In this document: positions 248 to 14,468 of the stretch, piece after piece
Layout of the letters: each line of letters begins with the position of its first letter
How positions within the stretch are numbered: position 1 is the stretch's first letter
Assembly (NCBI GenBank): GCA_964537235.1
Contig: CAZHZQ010000002.1
Span: forward strand, 1 to 46,691
DNA length: 46,691 nt
Reading direction: 5' to 3'
Origin: an uncultured Actinomycetota bacterium
Lineage (GTDB): Bacteria; Actinomycetota; Nitriliruptoria; Nitriliruptorales; JAHWKO01
Made by a program: the position numbers and the translations under genes
Notes under the pieces: generated by a model
What the model saw: the letters and a program-made list of their open reading frames with translations, nothing else
The model's database searches: none
Told to the model about the DNA's origin: nothing

Positions 248-1099
248 CTATTCCTTGTTGGCCGTTGCGTCGGGCGACGCAACGTGTCGGGGAACTTGAT
301 CGGCTGGCAAGTCGATGAAGTCCCCCATCGAGGCACCGCTGGCGTATTCCTTGAGCTCGACGGGATGGCCTTCGTACCGAGGCAGGATGCGGGTCCAGGC
401 GAGATAGAAGGTGAAGAGGGCCCGCTCGGGTGGGTCGCTCCGGATGACGGTGAGGTTCGAACCCGGCATGGGCAGTGGGTCGAGTCCCCCGTCGGGGTGG
501 CGGTTCATGATCACGCCCTTGTCGAGAACGCAGATCATGTCGATTCGCTGATCGACGGCGAGGTCCCGATCAATCGTGGCTGCGCGGAGCCGTTCAGCGA
601 GGGTCTCCAACGAGATCGAGTCGAAGGCTAGGACTAGGTAGTTCGTCGGCCAGTAGTCCCATTGGGTCCCGTACACGATCGGGTGGTAGGCCACGCCCAT
701 GGGGACGTGCGCGGTCCGCTGCAGGCGCTTGAGGCTGAGCATGTTCTCGATCGCATCGTTCAGGGCCGAGCCGTCGAGGTAGCTCTTGACCTCTACGGCG
801 GCGAAGACCGATTCGATCGGTAGGACGCGGAAGCCTTCTCGCACGTGAAGGACGGGGGCGTTCTCCGTGTCGTAGATCATCACGTCGAGCTGTCGGGACG
901 TCGCTCCGGTGGAGTCCATCGCCTGCCCGTGACAAACGCCGAGGGAGCCCGGCACGTGGGTGGCGAGGAACTGGCGGACCGTGGTCTCGTGCATCGAGCC
1001 CTTGGAGGCTGCGTGGTCGGTCGTCGCGCGTGCTTCCTCGAACTCCGACCTCATCCGCACCGCGATCCGGTCCATCATCTCAGCGAGGTCAGTCACCAA
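248..1099 (-). CDS. PD-(D/E)XK nuclease-fold protein (reminiscent of DUF6602-type restriction-endonuclease-like proteins)
   Basis: 283-aa ORF with G/C-rich third positions. The motif order QLDVMIYD ... FAAVEVKS gives the D ... E-x-K pattern of PD-(D/E)XK nucleases. It is the last gene of the relaxase-xis-int string. The track start is TTG; GTG and ATG alternatives lie a few codons in. Confidence 0.6.
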   Translation of the reverse strand: MVTDLAEMMDRIAVRMRSEFEEARATTDHAASKGSMHETTVRQFLATHVPGSLGVCHGQAMDSTGATSRQLDVMIYDTENAPVLHVREGFRVLPIESVFAAVEVKSYLDGSALNDAIENMLSLKRLQRTAHVPMGVAYHPIVYGTQWDYWPTNYLVLAFDSISLETLAERLRAATIDRDLAVDQRIDMICVLDKGVIMNRHPDGGLDPLPMPGSNLTVIRSDPPERALFTFYLAWTRILPRYEGHPVELKEYASGASMGDFIDLPADQVPRHVASPDATANKE

Positions 1100-1446: not shown

Positions 1447-2769
1447 TCAGTCCTCCGCGTCGGTGCCCTTGGGGCCGAACAGCTCTTCGGCGAAGCGCTG
1501 GGCCGCCGCTCGCTGCATGCCTGGCACCAGGTGCGTGTACGTCTTCAGCATGAACGCAGCGGACGCCCACCCGAGACGTTCCTGTACGACCTTCGGGTTC
1601 TCGCCGTTCGCGAGCAGCAGGGAGGCGTAGGTGTGTCTGACGTCGTGTAGGCGGATCGCGGGTACACCCGCCTCCTCGCAGAGCGAGGCGAACTCGTGAC
1701 TGATCCAGTCGGGGTTGAGGTGGCGTCCGTCGGGCCAGGTAAACAGGAACGAACCGTGGCCGATGGCTCCGTGGCCCCGTCGACAGGAGTCGTGTACTTG
1801 GTTGCCTCGCCAAGCGCGACCGCACTCCCGCCGCCACCCATCGCGATGCTCGCGCCACCTACGCAATGATTCGAGGGTGTAGTCGTCGAGGTCGACCGGG
1901 CGGCTTCCAGCGCCGGACTTCATGACCGGCTTGTGGACCGGCGCTGTGACTCCCTCCTCCTCGACCTGTTCCTCGGGTACCAACTGCCAGGCGACGACCA
2001 GCTTTCCCTCGTCGAGATCGACGTTCTCGTCGACCAGACCACCGAGCTCTCCGCGGCGCATCCCGGTCGTCGCTACGAGCAGCCACATCGGGTAGAGCCA
2101 GTGGTCCCCGGCGTAGGACAGGAACGTGGTCAGCTGCTCGGGCGTCCAGATCTGGATCGCGCGGCGTCGTGCCGCCTCGACGGAGGCGTTCGACGGAGGG
2201 TCGGCGAGCGTCGCCACGTTCTGCTCGACGACGCCCCACTTGCGGGCATCCCGCAGGGCCTTGCGGATGACGCCATGGATCTGGACGACCGTGGCCGGCG
2301 CTAGGGGCTGGCGTTCCTCCTCCGTAGGGGGAGGCTTACCTCGAAGGAGCGCCGAGTAGAAGCGATCGAGGTGGGCTGCGGTCAACTCTTGGAGCGGGAC
2401 TCCTCCGAGGTGGGGGACGAGGTGACGTTCCACGGCGTTGCGGATGTTGCGGTACCGATTGGGACTCACCTTCGGAGGCAACTGGGTCTCGAGCCACTCG
2501 CGGACGAGGAAGTCCTCGAGGGTTCGCCCTGAGGGTTCAACGTACGTCGAGCCGTCGACCTTGGAGAGGAGCTCACGGAGGGCGCGTTCCGCCTCCCGCT
2601 TGGTGTCGAAACCACCACCCCGGCGCTGCAGCCTGCGACCGTTGCGGTCCTTGCCGACATCCACTCGGAACGACCACGACGACTGTCGTCCCTCGCACGT
2701 CTCGTCGTGTCGACCAGTCCCCGGTCGTCGACCGCAGGTCGTACAGCGCTTGAACACGCTCCCCTTCAC
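1447..2769 (-). CDS. int: Tyrosine recombinase / phage-type site-specific integrase
   Basis: 440 aa with a GTG start. The C-terminal catalytic region RLHDVRHTYASLLLANG ... LKTYTHLVPG carries the HxxR and catalytic Tyr context. The N-terminus has the SAM-like/arm-binding style typical of actinobacterial element integrases. Confidence 0.93.
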   Translation of the reverse strand: MKGSVFKRCTTCGRRPGTGRHDETCEGRQSSWSFRVDVGKDRNGRRLQRRGGGFDTKREAERALRELLSKVDGSTYVEPSGRTLEDFLVREWLETQLPPKVSPNRYRNIRNAVERHLVPHLGGVPLQELTAAHLDRFYSALLRGKPPPTEEERQPLAPATVVQIHGVIRKALRDARKWGVVEQNVATLADPPSNASVEAARRRAIQIWTPEQLTTFLSYAGDHWLYPMWLLVATTGMRRGELGGLVDENVDLDEGKLVVAWQLVPEEQVEEEGVTAPVHKPVMKSGAGSRPVDLDDYTLESLRRWREHRDGWRRECGRAWRGNQVHDSCRRGHGAIGHGSFLFTWPDGRHLNPDWISHEFASLCEEAGVPAIRLHDVRHTYASLLLANGENPKVVQERLGWASAAFMLKTYTHLVPGMQRAAAQRFAEELFGPKGTDAED

Positions 2770-2894
2770 ACGGAACCCCTCTCGTTGCCCTCGAACAGGC
2801 CAGGGTGCGTGGAAGGCGAGCGGCTGTCACGCGAGAGCACGTCAGGCCTGTGGACAACGCCTGTTCGACCGTTGGCGCTGCTTGAAGCCATCCC

Positions 2895-3101
2895 TCAAGC
2901 CTCCTCCGCCACCAGGGCTGGGAGGCCGTCGAGGCCGAGGAGGTCGAGGAGTTTGCCGGTGGGCACGATGATGCGTCCGCCGATGCGGAAGGAGGGGATC
3001 TCGCCTCGGTTGACGCCGCGGTAGGCGGAGGAGCGGGAGATGCCCAGCAGTCGTCCGGCTTGTTCGACGGTGAGGGTGGCGGGGTAGCCGTTGGTGGTCA
3101 T
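2895..3101 (-). CDS. xis: Excisionase-family helix-turn-helix DNA-binding protein
   Basis: I chose the internal ATG at 3099-3101, which is preceded by a GGAGGAACC Shine-Dalgarno. The 68-aa product reads MTTNGYPATLTVEQAGRLLGISRSSAYRGVNRGEIPSFRIGGRIIVPTGKLLDLLG, a typical Xis/MerR-like HTH. It sits immediately upstream of int. Confidence 0.8.
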   Translation of the reverse strand: MTTNGYPATLTVEQAGRLLGISRSSAYRGVNRGEIPSFRIGGRIIVPTGKLLDLLGLDGLPALVAEEA

Positions 3102-3263
3102 GGTTCCTCCTGGTTGTGTTGGCACATAGGGAGCCCCCGGGCGGCACGCCCGTTTGTGACATCGACTTCGAAATTGTTGGAGATCCCCTGTCATCTCATG
3201 GAGGCCGTTTGGGACCGCCTCATGTGACATCCGACCGCCAAGTTGTTGTGGATACGGCCGGAA

Positions 3264-6200
3264 TCAGCGGCTGATGCCGCGGCCGAGGCCGCGGGCGGGC
3301 GGGTCGCGGTCGACCTGCCGGCCGGCCTCGTGCGTGCGCTGTTGACGGGTGACCTCGAGCAGCGCGTCGAGGGCCTGGTTGCGGGTGGCCTGCTGTTGCG
3401 GGTCGGCGGGGCGTGGTTGTCCGAGGGGGCTGGTGGGGTCGCGGACGTCGTAGAGGGTCCGGTACTCCTCGACCAGCCTGGCCGCCTTCGCCCAGGTCTC
3501 GTGTTCGGGTCCGGTGGCGGGTGGGGTGCCGATGGTGGCGGTCAGGTAGCCGGGTGGCTGACGGAGGACGGCGGCCGTCCGCTGTTGGACGACCTGGTGT
3601 AGCTGGTGGGCGAGGTCGGCCCGTTCGGTCTTCCAGGCGTCGACCTGAGCGTCGTCGGGTAGCTGTGTGAGCTTCCGTCGGGCCAGGGTGCGCTGTCGGT
3701 GCAGGTCGTGCAGCCGGTTTCGGCCGTCGTCGATCTGCCGGTATAGCTGCTCGATCTCCTGCCTGGTGCCGCGGCGGAGCTGGCGGATGCCGGACAGCTC
3801 CTGCCGGCGGGCCTCGGCGTGGTGGATGGCGGCGACGGCCGCTTCGTAGGCGTCCGACGCCTCCTGCTCGGCCTGGACGAGCTGTCGCCGGGTGTCCTGA
3901 ACCTGGGTGATGCGCCTGCCGAGGTCCACGAACCGGGTGGCGGTCTGCCGGACCTGCTCGACGTCGTAGGAGTCGGGCAGGAAGGCGACGGCGGGGGTCT
4001 GCGCGGCCGATCGGCGCAGTCCGGCGACGGTGCGGGTGTGGGGGTCGGGGTCGGGCTGCTGCTGGTGGTGGTGGATGTCGTGGGGGTCGTCGGTGGCGGG
4101 GTGGACGTACAGGCGGTTGGTGTGCCGGCCGCGGGACATCGCGACGTAGCCCCATTCGCGGTACAGCAGGTCCGAGCCGAGCACGAACGCATGGTCGACG
4201 GTAAGGCCTTGGGCTTTGTGGCCGGTGATCGCGTACCCGTGCGCCACATGGCCGGCCTGCACGTAGGCCTCTGGCAGGTGTAGGACGGTGCCGCGATCGT
4301 CGACCGCCGACAGCCCGCCGTCGTCGGTGATGTCGGTGATGGTGGCGAAGGTGCCGTTGACCACGCCGAGCCGCCGGTCGTTTCGCAGGCACAGGATCCG
4401 GTCCCCGGCCCGGAACGTCCGCCCGTCGTCGGTCTCGAGGACCGGCCCGGTCAGGTGTCCGGCGGCGTCGGCCCGTAGCCGCGCCCGCTGGTTGAGATCG
4501 TCGACATCGGTCTGCCGCAGCGCGATCATCACCGCCTGGTCGGCGCCGACCTGATGTCGGGCGTGCCACCAGTCGGACACCAGCTGCTCGCGCAGCCCTT
4601 CGGCGGTGTCGCCGGTGACGAGCTGGCCGTGTTCGTCGTACAGACCCAGGGCGTCGGCGGGGTCGCCGTGCCGAAGCCGGTCGAGCGCGTCGATCTCCCA
4701 GGCTTGTGTCTGCCGGCGGTTGTCGGTCAGCTCGATCGCGTCCAGCCGCTGTGTGAGGGTGGAGAAGAGGCCGCCGGCGTCGATCTCGGGCAGCTGGTGT
4801 GGGTCGCCGACCAGCACCACCTTCACCCGCTGCGCCTCACAGTGATCGAGCAGCCGGGCGAGCTGGCGGGTGCCGACCATCCCGGCCTCGTCCACCACGA
4901 GCACCGACCCGGGCACCAGCGGAGAGCCGACACCGCGATCGATGTCGTGCAGCAGCTTGTGGATCGTGGTCGACGGGATGCCCGCCGAGTCCTGCAGCTC
5001 CTGTGCCGCGCGCGCGGCCAGCGCCACACCGTGCATGTCGATCCCGGAGCTCTGCCAGGCATGGCGGGCGGCGTCCAACGCGAAGGTCTTGCCGGTCCCG
5101 GCCTTCCCGACCACGACGGTCACACCGTCGCCGTCGCGGGACAGTCGCGTCAGCATGTCGATCTGCTCGCCGGTCAGCGTCGGGTGGACCGCCATGACGC
5201 GGCGGATCGTCTCTGCGTCGACCGTCGCCGCATCGTCGTCTTGGCGGGCGATGGAGGTGTTGATGGCGTGCTGTTCGGCCAGCAGCAGCCCCCGGGTGGT
5301 CATGCGCACCTCGTCATCGGTCCCGCCGGCGATGGTGCGTCCGTCGGCTGTGCGGATCACGTCCACCGACGACAGACGGCCACGGGTCGCGCCGAGGGTG
5401 ATCACCTGGTCGCGGCCGGCCGCCAACACCGCCTCCGCGAGCTGTTCGATGTCTTCGACGGTTGCGCCGTCGGGCAGCCGTTCGGCGACCGCCCGCAGCA
5501 GGTCCCGGCGGGTGAACGTCGCCGCCTTCGCGGTCAGCGCCTCGTCGCCGACCAGCTCCTCGGCCAACACATCCACGTCCGGCGCTTCTGCGGTGTGTCG
5601 GTTCAGGAGCCGTTCGAGGTCGGACCGGTCGAACCCCAACTCACGGGCCCGGGCCGCCCACCCTGCGCGCAGCTCCCGCTCGGTCGGCTGCACGCCCTTC
5701 GCGTCGCGGGTGCTGAGCGTGGCGACCTGGGCGGCCTTGGCCGACGACTCCCCACGCTCGGCGAGCTTGTCGAGGATCGCCTGGCGGCGTTGGGAGAACG
5801 CGTCGATCAACTGGCGGTCGATCCCGGCGATGTCCGCGTACCCGTTGGTCACCGGCCCCCACTCGACCCCCAGACGCTCGGTGAGCTCGTGACGCAACTG
5901 GGCCTGGTAGAGGAACCCGGCCGTCTTGGCGTGCTGGTACATCCGCCGCGACTCGAACGTCCGCCACTTCCCGTCATCGGATGCGCGTACGAGGTTGGCG
6001 GCCAGCACGTGGGTGTGCAGCAGCGGATCACCCGCCCTCGACGTGCGATGCGTGAACGCCGCGCCGATCAGTCCGTCCACCTCAACCCGCTCCACCCCGC
6101 CCGCGCCGCGTCGAGTACGTAACGCGTGACGTTCGAGGTAGCCGACCGCGGCCTTGACCCCGGCGTCGTGAGCGGCCTGGACCTGTCCGGCGGTGTGCTG

Positions 6201-6512
6201 GTCGCCGAGCGCCCAAGCGATCGACACCGACTTCGGTGCCCGGAACGTCATATCGAACCCGGGGATCTTGCGGGCCGGATGCGACGCCAACCGCACCCCC
6301 GACGAAGGATCGTCGCCAGCCAGCACCGCACGCAGCGCGTCGGCCTCCACCTTCGCCCCACGTTCAAGACCGACGGGGTCCAGGCCGCGGCCGAGCCAAC
6401 GGCCCGGCGCCTCACCGCGGCGCAGGTAGTACTCCTCGGACCCGTCAGCCACCTGCGACAGGTAGTAGTCCTCCGACCCCGGCGCCATCTTCCCCACGTT
6501 CAACACCGGCAT
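3264..6512 (-). CDS. MobF-family conjugative relaxase (TrwC/TraA-type) fused to a RecD-like helicase
   Basis: 1082 aa. The N-terminus MPVLNVGKMAPGSEDYYL and the His triad DPLLHTHVLAAN match TrwC-type relaxases. Walker A VVVGKAGTGKTF and the C-terminal GYAITGHKAQGLTVDHAFVL match the helicase part. Confidence 0.93.
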   Translation of the reverse strand: MPVLNVGKMAPGSEDYYLSQVADGSEEYYLRRGEAPGRWLGRGLDPVGLERGAKVEADALRAVLAGDDPSSGVRLASHPARKIPGFDMTFRAPKSVSIAWALGDQHTAGQVQAAHDAGVKAAVGYLERHALRTRRGAGGVERVEVDGLIGAAFTHRTSRAGDPLLHTHVLAANLVRASDDGKWRTFESRRMYQHAKTAGFLYQAQLRHELTERLGVEWGPVTNGYADIAGIDRQLIDAFSQRRQAILDKLAERGESSAKAAQVATLSTRDAKGVQPTERELRAGWAARARELGFDRSDLERLLNRHTAEAPDVDVLAEELVGDEALTAKAATFTRRDLLRAVAERLPDGATVEDIEQLAEAVLAAGRDQVITLGATRGRLSSVDVIRTADGRTIAGGTDDEVRMTTRGLLLAEQHAINTSIARQDDDAATVDAETIRRVMAVHPTLTGEQIDMLTRLSRDGDGVTVVVGKAGTGKTFALDAARHAWQSSGIDMHGVALAARAAQELQDSAGIPSTTIHKLLHDIDRGVGSPLVPGSVLVVDEAGMVGTRQLARLLDHCEAQRVKVVLVGDPHQLPEIDAGGLFSTLTQRLDAIELTDNRRQTQAWEIDALDRLRHGDPADALGLYDEHGQLVTGDTAEGLREQLVSDWWHARHQVGADQAVMIALRQTDVDDLNQRARLRADAAGHLTGPVLETDDGRTFRAGDRILCLRNDRRLGVVNGTFATITDITDDGGLSAVDDRGTVLHLPEAYVQAGHVAHGYAITGHKAQGLTVDHAFVLGSDLLYREWGYVAMSRGRHTNRLYVHPATDDPHDIHHHQQQPDPDPHTRTVAGLRRSAAQTPAVAFLPDSYDVEQVRQTATRFVDLGRRITQVQDTRRQLVQAEQEASDAYEAAVAAIHHAEARRQELSGIRQLRRGTRQEIEQLYRQIDDGRNRLHDLHRQRTLARRKLTQLPDDAQVDAWKTERADLAHQLHQVVQQRTAAVLRQPPGYLTATIGTPPATGPEHETWAKAARLVEEYRTLYDVRDPTSPLGQPRPADPQQQATRNQALDALLEVTRQQRTHEAGRQVDRDPPARGLGRGISR

Positions 6513-6948
6513 GCCCCCTCTGCCGAGGGAGACGAAGCCGACGCCTTACGGGACGCCGTGAAAGGCCCTATCGGGGGTGTTGCTTGAGCGTTGCTAGCCG
6601 CCGCCGGCGGGGCCAGTGACAGTCTGTGCTTCCGTTTTCTGGTTGGCATTGCCTATGTGTAGGGCTTGTTCATCAGGTATGTCCAGTAGCTGATTTGGCT
6701 ATAGCTACTTGATTTCTGGGTTTCTGAGCTTATTTGTGTTTCTTGGCTGATGTCTAGTTTCGCTGGGTTCTTGGTCGTTGCTGGTGGTCTCGTTCTGATC
6801 GGTCGTTGAACTTCTCCACCCGAGATCCGAGGGTGTGCGCCCAGCGCACAGATCCGAGAGGCCGGTCGTCCACCGACCACGAGGAGGCCGGCTGGCCGAC
6901 CCGCACGTCCACCTGCCACCGTGACCCGCCGAGACGGAAGGGACGTCG
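6513..6948. promoter_or_regulatory. Repeat-rich, locally A/T-rich non-coding region upstream of the relaxase; candidate oriT and promoter region
   Basis: No credible ORF. There is a T-rich stretch at 6640-6800. GGTCGTTG occurs twice (6773-6780 and 6801-6808). A 10-bp palindrome CCGCCGGCGG lies near 6600-6612. A perfect inverted repeat TGTGCGC-cca-GCGCACA (6834-6850) is flanked by direct repeats AGATCCGAG (6823-6831 and 6850-6858). Confidence 0.3.
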
Positions 6949-7528
6949 GTGTTTGACCAACCAGGCATCGACCTCGACCGCGACCTCGCCTGGATCCACC
7001 GCGATCAGTACGTCTACTTCATCGAGATCGCCCACGCCCTCGGCGATCCTGACGACTGGGCCAGCTTCCGGGCTGATCTCGCCGAGGCCCTGGCGGCAGT
7101 GTTCAGCCTTTACCCGCACCCCACCCTGGGCGGACCGACGCAGCAGCGAAGACCTCAAGACCCGATAGCGGGTACTCGACGTCCTCGACTCGGTCCGGTT
7201 CCGCCACCACCCAGCCGGCGACTGGGACGGATTCTTCGACGCACTCTGGGAGCGGCGGTCCGAGCTAGGAGACGACCTCTGATTCCCCCTGGATGGAGGC
7301 CGAGTCAGGCGGACGAGCTAGGGACGGTCCCCGCGCAGATAGCCACCGACTACCGGTACGAGACCCACGCATTGGGGATGGCGTTTATGCTCTTCCTGCG
7401 GACCGCCCAACGGGTGCTGGTCTACAACGGGGTGGAACACCGCCGGATCCTACGACGACGCCCTCAAGAAGATCCTCGCCGAGTTCGACAGGCTCATGGA
7501 GCTTCCCCACATGGACCGTCAGGGCTAA
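6949..7528 (+). pseudogene. Decayed ORF(s): coding signal hops between frames, with an in-frame TAG
   Basis: High-GC3 segments lie in frame 1 (6949 to about 7130, FDQPGIDLDRDLAWIHRDQYVYFIEIAHALGDPDDWASFRADLAEALAAVF) and then frame 2 (ADRRSSEDLKTR-TAG-RVLDVLDSVRFRHHPAGDWDGFFDALWERRSELGDDL, stop at 7280). The signal returns to frame 1 (DYRYETHALGMAFMLFLRTAQRVLVYNGVEH) and frame 2 again (GSYDDALKKILAEFDRLMELPHMDRQG, stop at 7526). Confidence 0.4.
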
Positions 7529-7552
7529 TGGTGATGGCCGCTGTCCCGGGCC

Positions 7553-7804
7553 CTAGTTGATGGCACGTTGACTAGGTAGATCCCCGATTAGCGCTTCGAC
7601 GCTCTCCAGCCCGTAGGCGGCCTGCAACTTCAGGAGCACTGCGATCGTCGGATTGGCCTCGGTCGAGTTCTCGAGCTTGCTGATGTGTGCACGGCTAACA
7701 CCAGACCGCTCCGCGGCTTCGCGAAGCGCGTACCCACGCGCGAGTCGAAGCTCGCGCAACCGAGAGCCGATGCCGCTTAAGTCGACGTCCACTATAAGAG
7801 ACAA
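7553..7804 (-). CDS. XRE-family (Cro/C1-type) helix-turn-helix transcriptional regulator
   Basis: 83 aa. The sequence LRELRLARGYALREAAERSGVSRAHISKLENSTEANPTIAVLLKLQAAYG is a canonical XRE HTH. It is divergent from the cargo operon. Confidence 0.88.
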   Translation of the reverse strand: MSLIVDVDLSGIGSRLRELRLARGYALREAAERSGVSRAHISKLENSTEANPTIAVLLKLQAAYGLESVEALIGDLPSQRAIN

Positions 7805-8004
7805 GCGGGGGTGCGCGGCGGTCGGTCAAAGTCGTTGAACATGAGTGACTTCGCCGCCGTATAGCGGTAGAATGCCACCGATGTGAGTAGTGGAGCCTTC
7901 ACGGTTCATGTTATCAACAGTCTACTATGATGGACACCCGGAAGGGTTCGGACGCGATTAGCCTCACAGGGAACCGAGATCGGGATGCCCGAAGGAGCAG
8001 CACC
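7805..8004. promoter_or_regulatory. Divergent promoter/operator region between the XRE gene and the cargo operon
   Basis: An imperfect inverted repeat GTTGAACATG (7834-7843) / CATGTTATCAAC (7907-7918) brackets the A/T-richer intergenic DNA, which contains TAGAAT-like hexamers. A GAAGGAG Shine-Dalgarno sits at 7991-7997. Confidence 0.4.
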
Positions 8005-8595
8005 ATGAGGGCGCAGTTGCACGACTCCCCCAAGCTCTTGCTCACATTCCGGGAGTGCGCTCGAATCGCTGGCCATCTCGCGACGTTCTGTGACCGTGCT
8101 GAACATGTCGAGGTTTCCGACCGGAGCGTGTTGAGCGACTCCGGACAGCGGCTCAGAAATCTCTCCGTCTCTTTGGCAGAACTTGGGGGTATCCCACTGC
8201 TCGAGTACTACGCGGAAAGACTTCGAGGGATCGAGACCGACCACCCGCTGCGAACAGCTGCTTCGCCGATATTTCACGAGGCAGCGCGCGCAGCCCGAAC
8301 GTGGAGGCAACTGCAAGAGATCCAGGCTGGGCACGACCGCTGGTACCACCCCGACGTCTTCGGGCTCAGCAAGTCGGATCAGGTCCGCCACTACACGCTT
8401 CACGTGACGAAGCTCACGGGCCACCTATCTCAGCTTCTCGATCCGAGCGAAGCCGACTGGGGCGAGTTCGCACGCAGACGGGTACCTGACTTCCTAGTGT
8501 TCGGGTTGAAGATGTCCACCTTGGCCGGAGAGACTCTGCCCGACGAGGCGGACTACCTGCTAGAGCAGGCCCGTTCCGAACTCCAACCGGTCTAG
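8005..8595 (+). CDS. Hypothetical His-rich all-helical protein (possible four-helix-bundle, MazG/DinB-like; unverified)
   Basis: The ORF track gives 7927..8595. I prefer the ATG at 8005 because a strong GAAGGAG lies 7 nt upstream. The product is 196 aa, MRAQLHDSPKLLLTFRECARIAGHLATF... Third-position G/C looks higher than the local average. The stop lies 15 nt before the next gene. Confidence 0.65.
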   Translation: MRAQLHDSPKLLLTFRECARIAGHLATFCDRAEHVEVSDRSVLSDSGQRLRNLSVSLAELGGIPLLEYYAERLRGIETDHPLRTAASPIFHEAARAARTWRQLQEIQAGHDRWYHPDVFGLSKSDQVRHYTLHVTKLTGHLSQLLDPSEADWGEFARRRVPDFLVFGLKMSTLAGETLPDEADYLLEQARSELQPV

Positions 8596-8610
8596 CTGGA
8601 CTGAATTGGC

Positions 8611-10839
8611 TTGGCTCGCAAGCGTCTACTTCACCTCTCTGATCTGCACCTTGGCACGAACCCGGATTGGCAGACAACTGGTGACTACAAGTCGGACATC
8701 GTCCGGGTGGATGAACGACAGAACCGAGTTCAGCTTCTCCGGAACTCGCTAGTCGCCCTCGCTGACTACCTACGGAGTTCTGGACAGAGCCTCGACGCAG
8801 TAGTCATCACTGGCGACGTCACGTACAAGGGAGACCCGGAGGGCTTCGACGAGCTCCCAGACCTGCTCGACCAGCTTGGAGACACCAAACCCGAACCCGA
8901 CCACATCGTCATCGTTCCTGGCAACCACGATTTCGAGTGGGGCGCCTCCCCTTCTTCGGAAGAACGCTACGACAGATGGAAGCGGCTCCGGGATGACGGG
9001 TACGTGATTCCGTACCTCGATGGGGTTGACATCGACGCCTCAGGGACCCTTACCAACCCGGCGAGCCAGCCACTGTTGGTCGATGATGACGGGGCGTTCG
9101 TCGTCGCCGCCATCAACTCGGCCAACTACTGCGCTGGGAACGAGCGGCTGAACGGCATCGACGAGGACTCCCTGGGAGAAGTCGCGGACGAGTTCTCCGA
9201 CGATGAGCGCATCGTGGCAGTGCTTGAGAATCTGAGGTCGCTACGGAAGGCCGACGTGGCACGCATCAGCCCTGGACAACTGTCGGCCCTCGCAACCGCC
9301 CTTGAGCCCCATATCAGATCGGAACCCAAGCCACTGATCATCTGTGCACTTCACCACCACCTTCTGCCGGTGTCAGCAGGTGAGGAGTTCAAGCGGTACG
9401 AGTCCATAACGAACTTGGGAGAAGTCAGAGCCTTCCTCGGCTCGAACGACGTGAGACTCGTGCTACACGGTCACAAACACCACCCTGCGCTGCTTGTCGA
9501 TCACCCTCACGAGCACTCGACGATTCGGCGGCCGGACCTGGACTGGGTGACGCCCGTCTATATCTCGTCGGTGGGCACTATCGGCCACGGACGTGGCCCA
9601 AACGACGAGATAGCACGGCTTGTAGAGATCGGAACTGAGCTTCCGCGTGCTCGCCGCGTGGTCGTTCGTGAGGTGTTGGCCCGATCTGCGGGTGCTCGAT
9701 ACGACGATGAGCCTGCAGTTGTCGGCAGCCTGACCCTGACCGGACGACGAGCTCGAGAGACGGGTTACCCCATTCATGCCGTCGAGGGCCTCGACGTGGA
9801 CGAGGTGTATCAGAAGATCCTTGCGCTGTTCGATGAAGCCGGTCAGTCAGCGGGCACCGTCGTCCGGAATCTGGTATGCCGAGTGGCTGACGGCACGTCA
9901 GCGTCCTCGCCCCCGGTTGGCTTCCCCGACGTGCCCGGTAGGGACGACTTGGACGAGTGGTTCGACGAGATCGTCGAGTGGTGGCAGAGAGAGGACTCCG
10001 GTCTTGAGGAGCCTCATTTCAACCACGGAGAGAGGATCCACCGACAAGGAGCAGGAAGAAGCCAGATCGAAGACGTTGCAGACGCGCTGGACGCTGAGCC
10101 TCGCACAACCCGCGGCGTGGCAGTTGTCGTCAGTCCCGGAATCGATGACGTTGGGAACACGCGGGTCCGGATGCCTTCATTTTGTCTGGCTCATTTCGTC
10201 CTGGACGCGAGCGGACGAAGGCTCGACACCATCGCCTACTTCCGGAAGCAGCAAATGCGCACATGGTGGCCGGTCAACGTGGGTGAGCTCCGGCGTTTGC
10301 AGAGCGGTGTTATCGATGCGCTTGCCACTCGCGGGCGGGACGTCTCTCCGGGTGAAATCGTGACCTTCGCGGCCGAAGCCATATGGGGTACGGACCGCCC
10401 ACGAGTCATGGTCCCGAACGTCGACCGGCTAGCTCAGGACGACCCTGCAGTCCTGTGGAAGACGGCCCTTCGGGCCTTCGCCGCGGACGAGGACTTCACC
10501 CCATCGATATGGGAAGACCTGTTCGCCGATTGGCTTCCTGGTGAACAGATGGAACCCGACGGTGTGCCCATTGCCATCCGAGGCATCGAGATGCTCGCAG
10601 GCATCATCGGGACGCTTGCCGACTTCCACGATTCCGAGCCGGGCAGTCGCCTAGCCGCGGAGTTCGACAGCTTGCTTCACAACAACCGAACATACTCCGC
10701 ACAGGAGGATCAACCAGAAGGACGGGATTCGACTGCGCGGCGTGTTGCCTTCGATCAGTGGCGAGGGGAAGTCGGAAGGAGGATGGATGCCATCGTTCGG
10801 CACACCGAGGAACTGCGCGACGATATCTCGAGCGAGTGA
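8611..10839 (+). CDS. Fusion protein: N-terminal calcineurin-like metallophosphoesterase plus thymidylate-synthase/dCMP-hydroxymethylase-like domain plus C-terminal helical tail
   Basis: 742 aa with a TTG start. MPE motifs appear in order: HLSDLHLG (D11/H13), ITGDVTYKG (D69), VPGNHD (N105/H106), LHHHLL, LHGHKHH (H286/H288). Residues about 385-605 align by eye to E. coli ThyA. [40 protein letters not shown] matches [63 protein letters not shown] matches [24 protein letters not shown]. Confidence 0.85.
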   Translation: [742 protein letters not shown]

Positions 10840-11024
10840 ACCCCTCGGACCTGATAGGTATGTCTGTCAGGGTGAGGATCCGGGGGACAGTCTTGGGCAC
10901 AGCCTGGGCACGACTTGCGCGAGACACGTCGACACGCGGTGCAACACGCCGTTACCGCCACGCCGTTTCCCCAGGTCAGAGGCATGAGCCGGTATCCCGT
11001 GGGCCAGGTGAAACGAACCGAAGT

Positions 11025-11069
11025 CCCCTGACAAGGGTGAGGTCCCTGGTTCAAATCCAGGTCGGCCCA
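11025..11069 (+). other. tRNA-Val(GAC) 3' fragment (anticodon loop to discriminator); candidate att core remnant
   Basis: The sequence CCCCTGACAAGGGTG-AGGTC-CCTGG-TTCAAAT-CCAGG-TCGGCCC-A parses as an anticodon loop CTGACAA, variable loop AGGTC, a perfect T-arm with a TTCAAAT loop, a 7-nt acceptor 3' strand and discriminator A. No matching 5' acceptor or D-arm lies upstream, so it is not an intact tRNA. Confidence 0.45.
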
Positions 11070-11332
11070 CAACTGCTCGTCGCATGTCTCCTGGACGACC
11101 GTGGCCGGCACAGCGGCGGCTCGACATACTTGCCGAGCACCCTGGATCACCGGATATCACAGGCCCCGCTCGATCGGTCTCCCTCTGTTACGAGCACTGC
11201 GCCGAACCAGCAACGAAAAGCAAGGCGGGCCGTTCGAAAGCTTCGCCGCTGCCTCGCTCTGGGCTGCAGCGTCCTGACCGAAACCAACAACGATCAGCGC
11301 AGCAGAACTGAGCCGACGGATGGAGACCTGCC

Positions 11333-11935
11333 ATGACAGACGAGAACACGGAACAGAGCCGCCGGCCCGACAGCCAGGACGGTCATGCGGGCATGCAGAA
11401 ACAGATGTACCTGCGGTTCGCCGCGATGATCCTCACCGGGATGGTGGTCATGTACTTCGTGATGTTCGTCGGCTCCTGGGAGCTGAGCCACGTGCGGTTC
11501 AGCCAGAGCCGCATCTTCATGGCGGTGACCATGGGCGGAGCCATGGGCCTGGTCATGCTCGCGTGGATGCTCAACATGTACCGCAGCACCACGGCCAACG
11601 TCATCGTGGTGGTCGTGAGCCTGCTGCTGTTGGCGACCGGGACCGTGCTGGACCGCAGCCAGACGACCGTCGACGACATCGCCTTCATGAAGGGGATGAT
11701 CCCGCACCACTCGTTGGCCATCACCCGCTCGGAGCGGTTCAACGTCGAGGATGTGCGCGTGTGCGAGCTCGCCGTGGAGATCAGCGAGGCCCAGCGGCGT
11801 GAGATCCTCGAGATGGACTGGCTGATCGACGACATCGCGCAGAACGGCCCCGCGTCCACCCCCGAGGAAGCCGAAGCACGCCCCGTTCCGAACTTCGACC
11901 GGCCCGCCCAACGGCAGTGTCCGACAGACGGCTGA
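11333..11935 (+). CDS. DUF305-family membrane-associated protein
   Basis: 200 aa with two or three hydrophobic helices, followed by the FMKGMIPHHSLAI and AQRREILEM motifs characteristic of DUF305 as I recall the family. A GGAGAC RBS lies upstream of the ATG. Confidence 0.8.
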   Translation: MTDENTEQSRRPDSQDGHAGMQKQMYLRFAAMILTGMVVMYFVMFVGSWELSHVRFSQSRIFMAVTMGGAMGLVMLAWMLNMYRSTTANVIVVVVSLLLLATGTVLDRSQTTVDDIAFMKGMIPHHSLAITRSERFNVEDVRVCELAVEISEAQRREILEMDWLIDDIAQNGPASTPEEAEARPVPNFDRPAQRQCPTDG

Positions 11936-11996: not shown

Positions 11997-14468
11997 GTGA
12001 CCACCGAGCAGGCGCTGGCAGGAGACGCCAGAATGGTCACGGATGAAACTCATGACCCGGCTTCGGCGTCGTACCTGGGGACGGGCCGAGGGGGCTACGT
12101 GTCAGGAGCCGTACGTCGCCTGGTGATCACCGGGCTGCTCGCGCTCGCGTTCGTCGTGCCGGCGGGCGCGGCCGGAGCAGCGGCCGGGGCACAGGAGGAC
12201 GTCGCGCGATCCCTCGGGCTCGAGGCGACGGCGGGGTTCGACGGCACCCACGCCGGCTCGTCGTGGGTCCCGGTCACGGTGACGTTGGAGCCGGAGCGCC
12301 TGTTCGCGGGCAGCATCTCGGTGACCGGTCGGGGCGAGCTCGGTGAGATCGACGAGGAACGCGCCGTCGAGGTCCCCGGCGGTGGCCACCAGTCGTTCCG
12401 GTTCCTGCTGCCGTCCGCGCAGAGCGTCGTGGTGACGGCACGGCCGGACCGGGGCGAAGCGGCGACGGTCCGCGCCCAGGTCCGGGCCCTGGGGTCACGA
12501 GACCTCCTCGTGGGGATGTTGGGTGACGTCCCCGAGGGCGCACCGCTCGGGCTCGAGACGGACCCGACCGGCCTCGACGTCCACTACGCGTCGGTCGATC
12601 CCGCCTGGCTCGAGATGTCTCCACGTGCCCTGCACGGGGTGGGCACGCTCGTCGCCACGACCTCGACGCTCTCCGACCTCTCGGACGCCGCCAAGGGGAA
12701 CCTCACGAACGCGGTGGCCGGCGGGCTGGAGCTCGTCGTCACCCCCGGCGCCGCCGGTGTCGCGACCGAGCTCGGTGACCCCGGCCTGCCCGAGCTGCCG
12801 GCGGCCTCGGTCGCCGGCGGGTCGCTGGCCGCGGCTCCGGACGCCTGGACCCTGACCGTGGCGGACCTCTCGACAGGAACGACGGTCGACGATCAGCAGG
12901 GAGCCGTGATCGCCGCTGCCCGCAGCGAGGGACGCGGTGGGATCACGGTCGTCGCGACCCCACTGTCCGCCGGGAACCGCGGCGGAGACGTGGAGCTGTG
13001 GTCGCGGGTGCTCGCCCCGGGCGCCCACCGGCAGTACGACCAGGGTCAGCAGTCCGCGCTCTCGAGGGTCATGGAATCGGCCCAGCAGGCTCTGTCTGGC
13101 AACACGCTCGAGCTCCCGTCACTCCCGTGGTTGGCCGGGTTCCTGGCCGTGTACGTGCTCGTCGTCGGGCCTGTGAACGGGTTCGCGCTGGCTCGGATCG
13201 GACGCCGTGAGCTGGCCTGGGTGACGGTGCCCGCGATCACCCTGCTGTTCGCCGGTGGGGCGTTCCTGGCGGCGACGATCTCGGCGCCCCAGACCGGGCT
13301 CTCGGGGAAGCTCGCCTACTGGATCGACGGCGTGGGCACCGACGTCTCCGTGACCGCGGTCCGTGCACCCACGCCCGGCCGGCACGTGGTGGCTCTCGAC
13401 GGCAGCCGGTGGGACGTGCTCCCGACGTCGTTCCGCGCCCCCCCGACGGTGCGTCAGGACCGTTCGGACACCCAGGTCACCTTCGACCTCGAGTCGCTCG
13501 AGGTGGGGGTCGCCGTGGCATGGCGGCCGACCGCCACGCCGGCGCCGCTGGAGCTCGAGGCCGTCAGCAGCGGTGCAGACATCGACGTCACGGTCCGGAA
13601 CGTCGGCGACCGGCGTCTCCAGGACATCCAGGTCCGCGCGGCGAACCAGCGGCGGCAAGCCGGAGCCCTCGCCCCCGGCGAGTCGACGCAGCTCACCGTC
13701 CCGGCTGACCCGCTCCGACCCGTCGAGCCGTGGATCGACGAGCAGGAGTTCGCGATGGGGCGCCAGCCGGACGACCGCAACCTGCCGCAGGCGCTCGAAC
13801 ACCTCCTGCGCTTCCAGGCGATGGACCGCGCCCCCGGACTCGTCTGGGCGACCGCCTCGATCCCGGACGGGACGGGAGACCGGGTCTCGGCGGTCGACGG
13901 TCGATCGGCGGACGACGTCGGGACGTTGGTCGCCGTCGCGGAACCGATCCGCATCGAAGGCGAGATCGTTCCTCCCCACGCCGTAGCGCGGACCGTGGCG
14001 CAGGTGGCCGGACGGGGCGGCGGGCGCTCCGAATGGTGGCCGGGGCCGACGGCGGTCCAAGGCGCGGAGTCCGTGATCCTGCGGTACCGGCTCCCGCGCG
14101 TCACCGGCCTGCGGGCGCTGACCAGCTCTCTCGACTGGGCGTCCGATCACGTGGCCGTGAGGGTCGTCCCGCACGTTCGGGGCGGGCCGGACGCGCCGCC
14201 CGGCCGCCCGCAGCCCGCGCAGCCACTGCCGCCGCCTCCCGGCCGCTCCGGGTCGTTCGGGTCGGGCGGGTCGGGCGACAGCGTGGAGATCTGGGACGCG
14301 TCGTCGGTCACCTGGGTCCCGCTGGCGGCGGTGTTCGAAGGCGAGAACACCCTCTCCAGCCGGGCCGTGACCCCGCTCGGCGAGGTGTACGTCCGCGTCC
14401 GTGGCGGGGGACGGCTCATCGAGTTCTCCGGCAGGGGCGTCGGCGCGGTGCTGGGAGGGTCCGCATGA
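11997..14468 (+). CDS. Large membrane/exported protein of unknown function (first gene of the ABC-MoxR-VWA operon)
   Basis: 823 aa. The N-terminus is signal-like (RRLVITGLLALAFVVPAGAAGAAAGAQ). Internal TM helices are present (LPWLAGFLAVYVLVVGPVNGFAL..., VPAITLLFAGGAFLAATI). The stop overlaps the next start (ATGA at 14465). The ATG at 12033 is an alternative start. Confidence 0.72.
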   Translation: MTTEQALAGDARMVTDETHDPASASYLGTGRGGYVSGAVRRLVITGLLALAFVVPAGAAGAAAGAQEDVARSLGLEATAGFDGTHAGSSWVPVTVTLEPERLFAGSISVTGRGELGEIDEERAVEVPGGGHQSFRFLLPSAQSVVVTARPDRGEAATVRAQVRALGSRDLLVGMLGDVPEGAPLGLETDPTGLDVHYASVDPAWLEMSPRALHGVGTLVATTSTLSDLSDAAKGNLTNAVAGGLELVVTPGAAGVATELGDPGLPELPAASVAGGSLAAAPDAWTLTVADLSTGTTVDDQQGAVIAAARSEGRGGITVVATPLSAGNRGGDVELWSRVLAPGAHRQYDQGQQSALSRVMESAQQALSGNTLELPSLPWLAGFLAVYVLVVGPVNGFALARIGRRELAWVTVPAITLLFAGGAFLAATISAPQTGLSGKLAYWIDGVGTDVSVTAVRAPTPGRHVVALDGSRWDVLPTSFRAPPTVRQDRSDTQVTFDLESLEVGVAVAWRPTATPAPLELEAVSSGADIDVTVRNVGDRRLQDIQVRAANQRRQAGALAPGESTQLTVPADPLRPVEPWIDEQEFAMGRQPDDRNLPQALEHLLRFQAMDRAPGLVWATASIPDGTGDRVSAVDGRSADDVGTLVAVAEPIRIEGEIVPPHAVARTVAQVAGRGGGRSEWWPGPTAVQGAESVILRYRLPRVTGLRALTSSLDWASDHVAVRVVPHVRGGPDAPPGRPQPAQPLPPPPGRSGSFGSGGSGDSVEIWDASSVTWVPLAAVFEGENTLSSRAVTPLGEVYVRVRGGGRLIEFSGRGVGAVLGGSA

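Follow-up and report, generated by a model that had tools for sequence, protein, structure and literature searches.

A mobile-element gene pair with a phosphoesterase fused to an inactivated thymidylate synthase fold, a putative nucleotide-targeting conflict module

What kind of system is encoded at positions 7553-10839 of contig CAZHZQ010000002.1, from an uncultured Actinomycetota bacterium? The region lies in a stretch of 46,691 nucleotides (nt), hereafter the window and always meant at its full length, and consists of an XRE-family regulator gene, a small gene and a large gene that are confirmed as cargo of an integrative mobilisable element. An earlier note on this DNA had proposed an undescribed three-gene module whose large product joins a phosphoesterase to a domain resembling thymidylate synthase (TS). 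We find the module to be real, discrete and cargo-borne. The trio, however, is not what is conserved: by comparison of loci, the conserved core is the pair of small and large genes. This pair is likely to be a nucleotide-targeting conflict module. More tentatively, and short of calling it probable, we read the region as a self-regulated two-protein module resembling the Metis system, in which a TS-fold pseudoenzyme (pseudo-TS) would replace the PUA sensor and whose most likely role would be anti-phage abortive infection.

The listing of open reading frames (ORFs) bears out the arrangement given in the earlier note, with the XRE gene divergent from two genes separated by exactly 15 nt (8596-8610). 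The features of the block are these (aa, amino acids; AF2, AlphaFold model; pLDDT, predicted local distance difference test):

7553-7804, minus strand: XRE-family (HTH_3) repressor-type regulator of at most 83 aa (Pfam HTH_3, E 1.2e-13), divergent from the pair
7805-8004: putative divergent control region, with a promoter-like site and a candidate operator
7927-8595, plus strand: small ORF of 222 aa, whose internal ATG at 8005 gives 196 aa
8005-8595, plus strand: small partner protein, 196 aa, all-alpha, orphan family (gene call P0121; AF2 model)
8611-10839, plus strand: large ORF, 742 aa, TTG start
8611-9600, plus strand: calcineurin-like metallophosphoesterase domain of MisA/DS-9A (Calcineurin-CE) type, residues 1-330, with an insert at about residues 110-240
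9601-9795, plus strand: beta-rich linker region, residues ~331-395 (AF2 secondary structure, lower pLDDT; no family assignment)
9796-10410, plus strand: TS-fold pseudoenzyme, residues ~396-600 (TIGR03283, profiles, Foldseek, conservation)
10411-10839, plus strand: C-terminal helical bundle, residues ~601-742 and stop (AF2 helices 603-741, high pLDDT)

A phosphoesterase joined to an inactivated thymidylate synthase fold

The N-terminal half of the large protein is a metallophosphoesterase. Pfam Metallophos (PF00149) matches residues 5-292, and the metal-binding motifs, D11/H13, GD68-69, GNHD104-107, HH248-249 and GHKH287-290, are invariant or at least 90% conserved in an alignment of 33 homologues, from which all conservation figures here are taken. 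The five calcineurin-like motifs pointed out in the earlier note are therefore upheld. The best NCBIfam model for the large protein is NF053862 (DS9_1 anti-phage phosphoesterase, E 9.6e-31), which all 33 of the aligned family members match, and the next-best phosphoesterase model is SbcD at E 1.9e-6. The NF053862 match is limited to profile positions 193-358, leaving the PUA part unmatched. Against E. coli DS-9A, identity is 30% over 103 aa across motifs I-III, including an unusually long spacer between motifs I and II. With the predicted structure (pLDDT 86), Foldseek matches the phosphoesterase domain to Rv0805, Lmo2642, GpdQ and SMPDL3A. By these sequence comparisons the domain belongs to the effector clade of MisA/DS-9A (Metis, PUA-Cal-HAD, Calcineurin-CE).

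At least 399 homologues carry the full-length fusion. In homologues the alignment begins at residue 3-6, which favours the TTG start at 8611 over that of the collection gene call P0001 (710 aa); the latter begins 32 codons downstream, leaves off window positions 8611-8706 and so loses motif I (D11-x-H13). The phosphoesterase domain itself begins at residue 3.

The second domain is TS-like, as the earlier note had read it. TIGR03283 matches the window protein (E 6.9e-6) and all 33 relatives, although the window protein does not reach the threshold of Pfam PF00303. A PDB search with the family profile recovers MilA, a CMP hydroxymethylase, together with dozens of thymidylate synthases (E 3e-7 to 1e-5), and Foldseek of the domain returns the dCMP hydroxylase AfhB (9iqu, TMt 0.67), M. 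tuberculosis ThyA (4fox, TMt 0.51) and MilA. In a residue-level alignment of hidden Markov models (HMMs), the strand f-P-S-F-C-L-V-Q-F lies on l-P-C-H-x-F-x-Q-F of TS. The key residues of E. coli TS, several of which contact the deoxynucleoside monophosphate (dNMP), correspond as follows:

Cys146, catalytic nucleophile: Ser523 (10177-10179), by HMM alignment
His147, following the nucleophile in the P-C-H motif: Phe524
Ala148, non-catalytic: Cys525
Arg127, dNMP phosphate, donated across the dimer interface: Arg501, at least 90% conserved
Arg166, dNMP phosphate: Arg545, invariant
Asn177, reads the base: Asn556, invariant
Tyr94, active-site residue: His472, invariant

The earlier note had taken C525 for the catalytic cysteine and proposed a C525A mutant. 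That assignment fails, as the nucleophile position is Ser523, while C525 aligns with Ala148, at a variable position where family members have C, A, F, S, T or V. The nucleophile position is Ser or Ala across the family, and because of this replacement we regard the domain as a pseudoenzyme. The domain shares with the TS/CMP-dCMP hydroxymethylase superfamily (ThyA, T4 gp42, MilA, AfhB) the fold, the equivalents of R127, R166 and Asn177, and the PxxxxxQF strand. It differs from that superfamily in the changes of Cys146 to Ser/Ala, His147 to Phe and Tyr94 to His, and in its fusion to a phosphoesterase and a helical bundle. In TS, Asn177 selects uracil, and cytosine-specific relatives have Asp at that position. 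In the TS dimer the Arg126/127 pair reaches across the interface to the other subunit; one Arg of the pair is kept in the present family, which has Ser/Thr in place of R126. From these residues, the pseudo-TS has probably kept both the binding of a uracil- or thymine-type mononucleotide and the ability to dimerise. The C-terminal helical bundle beyond it has conserved positions at P643, G658, N692 and W717 and has no family match.

The partner protein and the linkage of the pair

The small protein had been described in the earlier note as a His-rich helical protein of 196-222 aa. The helical character stands. The length is taken as 196 aa, since the gene calls of the window and of its closest relative, locus L169, agree on the start at 8005, and since the in-frame ATG at 7927 sits inside a conserved palindrome; use of that upstream ATG (222 aa) is unlikely. 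The composition is better described as conserved His/Asp/Glu than simply as His-rich. The family is large, with at least 546 homologues by profile search and 574 clusters at 50% identity in an exhaustive HMMER scan, and nearly all members are stand-alone proteins of ~190 aa labelled 'hypothetical'. The protein has no match in Pfam, NCBIfam, PADLOC (DB 2.0) or PHROGs, and no homologue bears a Pfam domain. Its AF2 model is confident and all-helical (pLDDT 93.6). Foldseek against the PDB and BFVD found nothing significant (best E 0.38); a viral 'NTP-PPase-like' protein at a non-significant E of 0.93 is a faint hint only.

About 25 positions of the small protein are invariant, mostly polar, and include C29, D30, H34, E36, Y69, R72, E77, H110, D111, D117, H129, H133, K136, R159, D162 and K169. 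Judging by these residues, the polar invariants would resemble an active site more than a binding surface, and an enzymatic role for the protein is our conjecture.

Several candidate identities for the small protein were tried and set aside. A divergent MazG/MazG_C is given at most 1% probability by hhalign, no Pfam match appears even among distant members, and Foldseek is not significant, leaving a positional analogy only. The H...HD...H...H...D-like pattern recalls HD-type phosphohydrolases, a motif speculation that the PDB profile search and Foldseek do not support. An internal duplication was also considered, and hhalign of the N-terminal against the C-terminal half is not significant. Distant members (P0350, P0365, P0372-P0388), none of which has a Pfam domain, match in two stretches, with the C-terminal half of the profile falling on their N-terminal part.

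The linkage of the two genes was assessed across 92 loci, comprising 80 metagenome loci found with an alignment of the TS part, five genome loci, six exact look-ups and the window, by family HMM scan and ORF clustering. The scan of genome contigs with a full-length alignment was swamped by generic phosphoesterase motifs, and hence five full-length loci came from it. Neighbours were counted in 42 non-redundant loci flanked on either side by 1.5 kb or more, a gene being called adjacent when within 300 nt. The families found adjacent to the fusion gene are:

Cys-bearing TS paralogue of ~510 aa: 13 of 42 loci
small protein: 11 of 42 loci
MazG+MazG_C protein: 5 of 42 loci
nucleoside/nucleotide-kinase-like protein: 4 of 42 loci

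Small-protein homologues standing next to the fusion gene (L003-5, L083, L087, L099, L159, L165 and others) show 40-46% identity. Their orientation is not fixed. The small gene lies upstream of the fusion in the window and L087, downstream with a 4-nt overlap in L003, L005, L083, L099, L159 and L165, and convergent with it in L001 and L104. Because the linkage is retained despite rearranged gene order, it is strong evidence that the two proteins are functionally tied. Look-ups from the side of the small protein agree: a Metallophos gene lies at most two genes upstream in three of four (L170/171, L173 and L174). It is a 717-720-aa gene immediately upstream of the small gene in L170/171 and L173. 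In L174 (3736-5948, a Thermoleophilaceae metagenome-assembled genome), a 427-aa phosphoesterase gene and then a 269-aa gene stand upstream of the small gene and may be a split version of the fusion. In the fourth look-up, L172, the contig end cuts just before the small gene. The earlier note had proposed collecting homologues to see whether the pair is co-conserved; with adjacency in 11 of the 42 loci and the reverse look-ups, it is, across unrelated loci.

The pair occurs without other recurrent neighbour families in the window, in L001 (Actinoplanes), in L096 and in L113. In L001 (Actinoplanes sp. NPDC049118), a 109-aa ORF at 12692-13021 on the minus strand stands beside the small gene; it looks MazG-like by eye ('EEVAEATAE') and has no Pfam match at E <=1.

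The closest relative of the whole block is L169, a 3.6-kb assembly contig with the same divergent XRE gene, 196-aa gene and large gene. Nucleotide similarity between it and the window spans exactly 7563-10830 at 70% identity and then ends, and amino-acid identity is 73-77%. As the similarity is confined to this interval, the three genes travel together. Estimates of dN/dS against L169 are ~0.07 (small gene), ~0.08 (large gene) and 0.13 (XRE), values that are approximate owing to saturated dS. Because they are low (~0.1), the block is not a decaying remnant. On this sequence comparison, the trio is a single transferable unit that purifying selection maintains. The XRE gene recurs beside the pair only in L169; none was found in more distant loci or in the other pair-only loci.

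The regulator has capH as its top PADLOC match (6.7e-11), along with weak HipB/MqsA-type matches. No M78 metallopeptidase partner for a capH-like XRE occurs in the window, so that the locus lacks the CapH/CapP pairing. A promoter scan places a promoter-like site, GTGACT-17-TAGAAT, at 7845-7873 on the plus strand, and a palindrome-like candidate operator, GTCTACTATGATGGAC, lies at 7920-7935. The control-region block TAGAAT..CCACCGATGTGAGTA..GTTATCAAC..GTCTA..TAGAC is kept in L169, where the palindrome is perfect (GTCTATGATCATAGAC). The palindrome is thus a plausible XRE operator, as far as its sequence goes.

The wider neighbourhood was counted within 6 kb of the fusion gene in the 42 well-flanked loci:

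HMUDK_hel (PF18723), sometimes fused to a dTMP-kinase-like domain: 33 of 42
284-aa TS-like protein: 24 of 42
M78 peptidase fused to a chagasin-type inhibitor: 24 of 42
XRE: 22 of 42
TS paralogue: 16 of 42
papain-like peptidase: 12 of 42
MazG/MazG_C: 10 of 42
ACPS: 8 of 42
ThsB-type TIR: 8 of 42
Nmad2: 5 of 42
TIR-SLOG: 3 of 42

Restriction- or conflict-type genes adjoin several of these islands, namely type I (L170, L174), type ISP (L081), PLD-SNF2 (L096) and SLATT (L174). The fusion gene is found on six rhizobial plasmids, five of them conjugative. On pSfreGR64b of S. fredii the island holds an ImmA/IrrE peptidase, a C1 peptidase, a uracil-DNA glycosylase (UDG), an NTP pyrophosphohydrolase and a TS, and adjoins trb genes. 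Besides this plasmid, from strain GR64, Arthrobacter sp. Z4-13 (CP096459) is another example with a full island. No homologue of the fusion gene was found in 50,697 phage records. Because it is absent from phages and present on plasmids and beside conflict genes, the fusion family is, by its distribution, a cellular, mobile-element-borne component of conflict islands and not a phage DNA-modification gene.

A recurrent cassette accompanies the fusion in several islands (L081 3216-7022; L083 11963-15619; L085 1174-4272; L170 7856-11467; and L167, on S. fredii pSfreGR64b, 2727-5866). It consists of a small ORF, a 275-284-aa TS-like protein, an ACPS (phosphopantetheinyl-transferase-like), an XRE, an M78-Inhibitor_I42 protein and a papain-like C1 peptidase. 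Its M78 part is an ImmA/IrrE-type peptidase and Inhibitor_I42 is a chagasin-type domain. A peptidase encoded beside a carrier of its family's inhibitor domain suggests a proteolytic switch.

Comparison with known systems and competing explanations

The earlier note did not recognise the architecture in any named system. This holds for the pair as such: neither the PADLOC-DB 2.0 (2023) models nor NCBIfam at its own cut-offs place it, and the large protein has weak motif-level PADLOC matches. The architecture is not isolated, however, as its phosphoesterase is a relative of MisA/DS-9A. A full-text literature search found no description of a phosphoesterase::TS-fold fusion or of the small family, with the proviso that the paper defining Calcineurin-CE may already list the architecture. 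What is known is the effector clade and the sensor-effector logic; the dead TS fold as putative sensor, the partner family and the minimal two-gene form are new.

DS-9 is a two-gene system of a metallophosphatase and a HAD protein that was validated as anti-phage by DefensePredictor (PMC13092281). Under the name Metis (MisA/MisB), the same system has been described as cleaving NAD+ to NMN and AMP through m6dAMP-activated MisA, with MisB clearing basal ligand in the Sorek model (bioRxiv 10.1101/2025.11.05.686725). As PUA-Cal-HAD, it has been described as forming an m6dAMP-induced filament that depletes dNTPs, with the HAD protein feeding the effector in the Nobrega/Patel model, and its authors place the phosphoesterase domain in the 'Calcineurin-CE' effector family (bioRxiv 10.64898/2026.01.15.699771). 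In Metis / PUA-Cal-HAD, binding of a mononucleotide to the fused sensor is what leads the phosphoesterase domain to cut pyrophosphate linkages in NAD+ and/or (d)NDPs (bioRxiv 10.1101/2025.11.05.686725; 10.64898/2026.01.15.699771). The window module resembles Metis in having a phosphoesterase of the same clade with intact metal motifs, an effector fused to a domain that putatively binds a mononucleotide, a second gene in tight linkage, and a mobile-element or defence-island setting. The expected ligands differ, being m6dAMP for Metis and, judged from the pocket residues, a uracil- or thymine-type pyrimidine nucleotide for the window module. In the text of the PUA-Cal-HAD preprint, Calcineurin-CE is a predicted nucleotide-targeting effector of many combinatorial conflict systems (bioRxiv 10.64898/2026.01.15.699771), a description that the window protein fits; that text nowhere mentions thymidylate synthase.

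The second point of comparison is DS-4, a DefensePredictor system of TS, dNMP kinase, HMUDK_hel, TIR and Nmad2 that protects E. coli from phage (PMC13092281, supplement). Most relatives of the fusion sit in islands homologous to DS-4, also with ThsB-type TIR and Nmad2. The DS-4A TS matches the TS-paralogue cluster of the islands (8e-41), DS-4C HMUDK_hel matches 51 neighbouring ORFs (up to 5e-32), and the pseudo-TS domain is itself related to a DS-4A-type TS. In contrast, the DS-4 component list has no metallophosphoesterase or small helical protein. A likeness to CapH/CapP is confined to regulation: the window XRE is nearest capH and sister islands have a pair of XRE and M78 (ImmA/IrrE-like) peptidase, whereas the window has no M78 peptidase and its XRE is kept only in L169.

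These comparisons favour attack on the nucleotide pool or nucleotide sensing, which the earlier note had put forward, as the logic that the sequence evidence supports best. The Metis-like mechanism would run as follows. The pseudo-TS fold would bind a pyrimidine mononucleotide, resembling dUMP, dTMP or 5-hm-dUMP, that rises during infection. Binding would switch on the MisA-type phosphoesterase, possibly through TS-type dimerisation or higher-order assembly; the activated enzyme would destroy NAD+ and/or (d)NDP/(d)NTP, and phage replication would halt. The 196-aa protein would be an obligatory partner acting on nucleotides, so as to supply the effector or, as proposed for MisB, to remove basal ligand. 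Such a role is suggested by its enzyme-like invariant His/Asp/Glu/Arg and by the MazG-type pyrophosphatase or active TS paralogue that takes the same slot in sister loci. The XRE protein would repress the divergent promoter and keep expression low. A more specific version, which we hold to be doubtful, makes the dead TS fold the receptor for a pyrimidine deoxynucleotide danger signal that switches on the Metis-type phosphoesterase, and makes the 196-aa protein a metal-dependent nucleotide hydrolase of new fold that sets the threshold. Candidate danger signals would be dUMP, 5-hydroxymethyl-dUMP or dTMP, arising from phage nucleotide metabolism or from degradation of host DNA.

Were this so, Metis would have a counterpart that senses pyrimidines, and an inactivated TS would be seen for the first time as an immune sensor. 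The Metis principle, described in 2025-26 for a modified purine mononucleotide from the cell's own DNA, would extend to pyrimidines with an independently recruited sensor, a housekeeping enzyme fold turned receptor. It would also explain the job of the fusion inside DS-4-like islands, which are validated and mechanistically unexplained, and would give a function to an orphan family of several hundred clusters whose confident model is unmatched in the PDB. The minimal two-gene version in the window is the simplest construct for testing.

Several observations weigh against the Metis-like mechanism. NF053862 scores 107 bits against an equivalog cut-off of 420, and because this is far under the cut-off we regard the large protein as a relative of MisA and not an orthologue. 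Metis has an N-terminal PUA-like sensor of modified bases, whereas the window protein has none and its fused domain is C-terminal with a TS fold; the Metis partner is a HAD phosphatase (MisB), whereas the window partner is an orphan all-alpha protein, and no HAD protein is among the recurrent neighbour families of the related loci. In the TS-like domain, the equivalents of TS His207 and Tyr209, which contact the sugar 3'-OH, are apparently not conserved (alignment read by eye). The domain could be a module that selects the substrate rather than an allosteric sensor, and the AF2 inter-domain geometry of the large protein is uncertain (predicted TM score, pTM, 0.57). The small protein shows no detectable homology to any hydrolase by hhalign, PDB profile search or Foldseek. 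Unlike most relatives, the window has none of the DS-4 genes and is a minimal version; tblastn of HMUDK_hel, TS paralogue, MazG_C, M78 peptidase and others against it gave nothing, and no other defence gene lies near the block in the window, an uncharacterised DUF6602 gene perhaps excepted. What the analysis shows is the domain identities, the lost catalytic Cys, the co-conservation of the pair, its genomic setting and the purifying selection on it; ligand, substrate, mode of activation, partner activity and defence phenotype are inferred.

Other explanations have to be weighed against this evidence. The pair could adjust the nucleotide pool so that bases in DNA are replaced or hypermodified, as a dTMP/dTTP- or dUMP-directed nucleotidase or pyrophosphatase whose dead TS picks the pyrimidine substrate. 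It would work with TS paralogues, 5-hydroxymethyldeoxyuridine (5-hmdU)-DNA-kinase-like proteins, MazG and UDG to keep thymidine out of host or mobile-element DNA or to modify it there, one conceivable purpose being to protect conjugative elements from restriction. What the window holds would then be a pared-down remnant of the pathway. Phages with hydroxymethyluracil (hmU) DNA encode dTMPase and dTTPase activities. The commonest neighbours of the fusion are indeed homologous to phage thymidine-hypermodification enzymes (HMUDK_hel in 33 of 42 loci, Cys-bearing TS, dTMP-kinase fusions, MazG/MazG_C and Nmad2, with UDG on pSfreGR64b), and several occurrences are on conjugative plasmids or elements resembling integrative and conjugative elements. 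We nevertheless consider this unlikely. The fusion is absent from the 50,697 phage genomes, the same enzyme set protects E. coli from phage as DS-4, and the loci are associated with TIR, SLATT and restriction genes. Moreover, the pair stands alone in the window and also, at a minimum, in L001, L096 and L113, yet is under strong purifying selection, and the phosphoesterase is nearest a validated immune effector. Decay of a larger DS-4-like island to a remnant with no present function would account for the missing HMUDK_hel, TS paralogues, M78 peptidase and other components common in relatives. It is very improbable, given that all three ORFs are intact with every catalytic motif present, that the pair is alone in other loci too, and that L169 keeps the same three-gene unit (identity 70% in nucleotides and 73-77% in amino acids; dN/dS 0.07-0.13).

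That the pair stabilises the element as a toxin-antitoxin (addiction) module is a slightly poorer prospect than base modification. The fusion would be a toxin that depletes nucleotides, the small protein its antitoxin by direct contact and XRE the autoregulator, with no need to sense phage. The tight small and large pair (the 15-nt gap here, 4-nt overlaps elsewhere), its cargo position, an XRE type that is typical of toxin-antitoxin loci with its weak HipB/MqsA-type matches, and a small protein without a recognisable enzyme fold would all suit this account. Yet some 25 invariant polar residues are what one expects of an active site, not of an antitoxin interface, enzymes (MazG, TS) fill the small-protein slot in sister loci, gene order varies (upstream, downstream, convergent), and a conserved pseudo-TS pocket would be superfluous in a constitutive toxin. 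The account also overlaps with abortive infection, so that the two are not fully exclusive. Housekeeping function, as a 3',5'-cyclic-nucleotide phosphodiesterase ('CpdA') or an ordinary enzyme of thymidylate metabolism, deserves hardly any credence. JGI labels many homologues 'CpdA' or 'CpdA/thymidylate synthase', and there are weak matches to Rv0805/Icc and PRK11148. However, the CpdA model, whose cut-off is 225 bits, gives only 23, the TS-like domain has no catalytic Cys, the distribution is patchy and tied to mobile elements with atypical composition, and the neighbourhood is one of conflict-system genes.

The mobile element and the surrounding genes

The earlier note had placed the block at the cargo end of an integrase/relaxase element, directly before an att-like tRNA fragment. 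Pfam matches and the fragment itself agree with this:

1447-2769, minus strand: tyrosine integrase (Pfam Phage_integrase), in the element backbone (1447..6512)
3264-6512, minus strand: TrwC relaxase/helicase (Pfam TrwC and AAA_30), in the element backbone
11041-11069, plus strand: tRNA 3' fragment (T-arm and acceptor), GGTCCCTGGTTCAAATCCAGGTCGGCCCA, att-like right boundary of the element

The tRNA fragment occurs once in the window, and ARAGORN finds no complete tRNA at its position. The contig begins within the element, and its left end is not visible. A 203-aa ORF at 6949-7560 on the plus strand lies between the relaxase and XRE genes, overlaps the XRE 3' end by 8 nt and has no Pfam or PHROG match; as it falls outside the block common to L169, it is not counted as part of the module. 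To the right of the fragment the genes are chromosomal, with an 823-aa protein without Pfam match (11997-14468, plus strand) following a DUF305-containing membrane-type protein (11333-11935, plus strand).

Composition marks the same boundaries. The block was noted to be more A/T-rich than its surroundings, and G+C is indeed 0.60-0.63 over ~6500-11500, as against 0.64-0.71 in the rest of the element and 0.70-0.76 in the chromosome to the right, climbing back above 0.70 beyond the tRNA fragment. At the left contig edge, beyond the integrase, window positions 248-1099 on the minus strand encode the 283-aa DUF6602 protein (PF20247, E 2.3e-27). The family is uncharacterised, and its one PHROG match has no assigned function. 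The protein may be additional cargo, either of this element or of one next to it.

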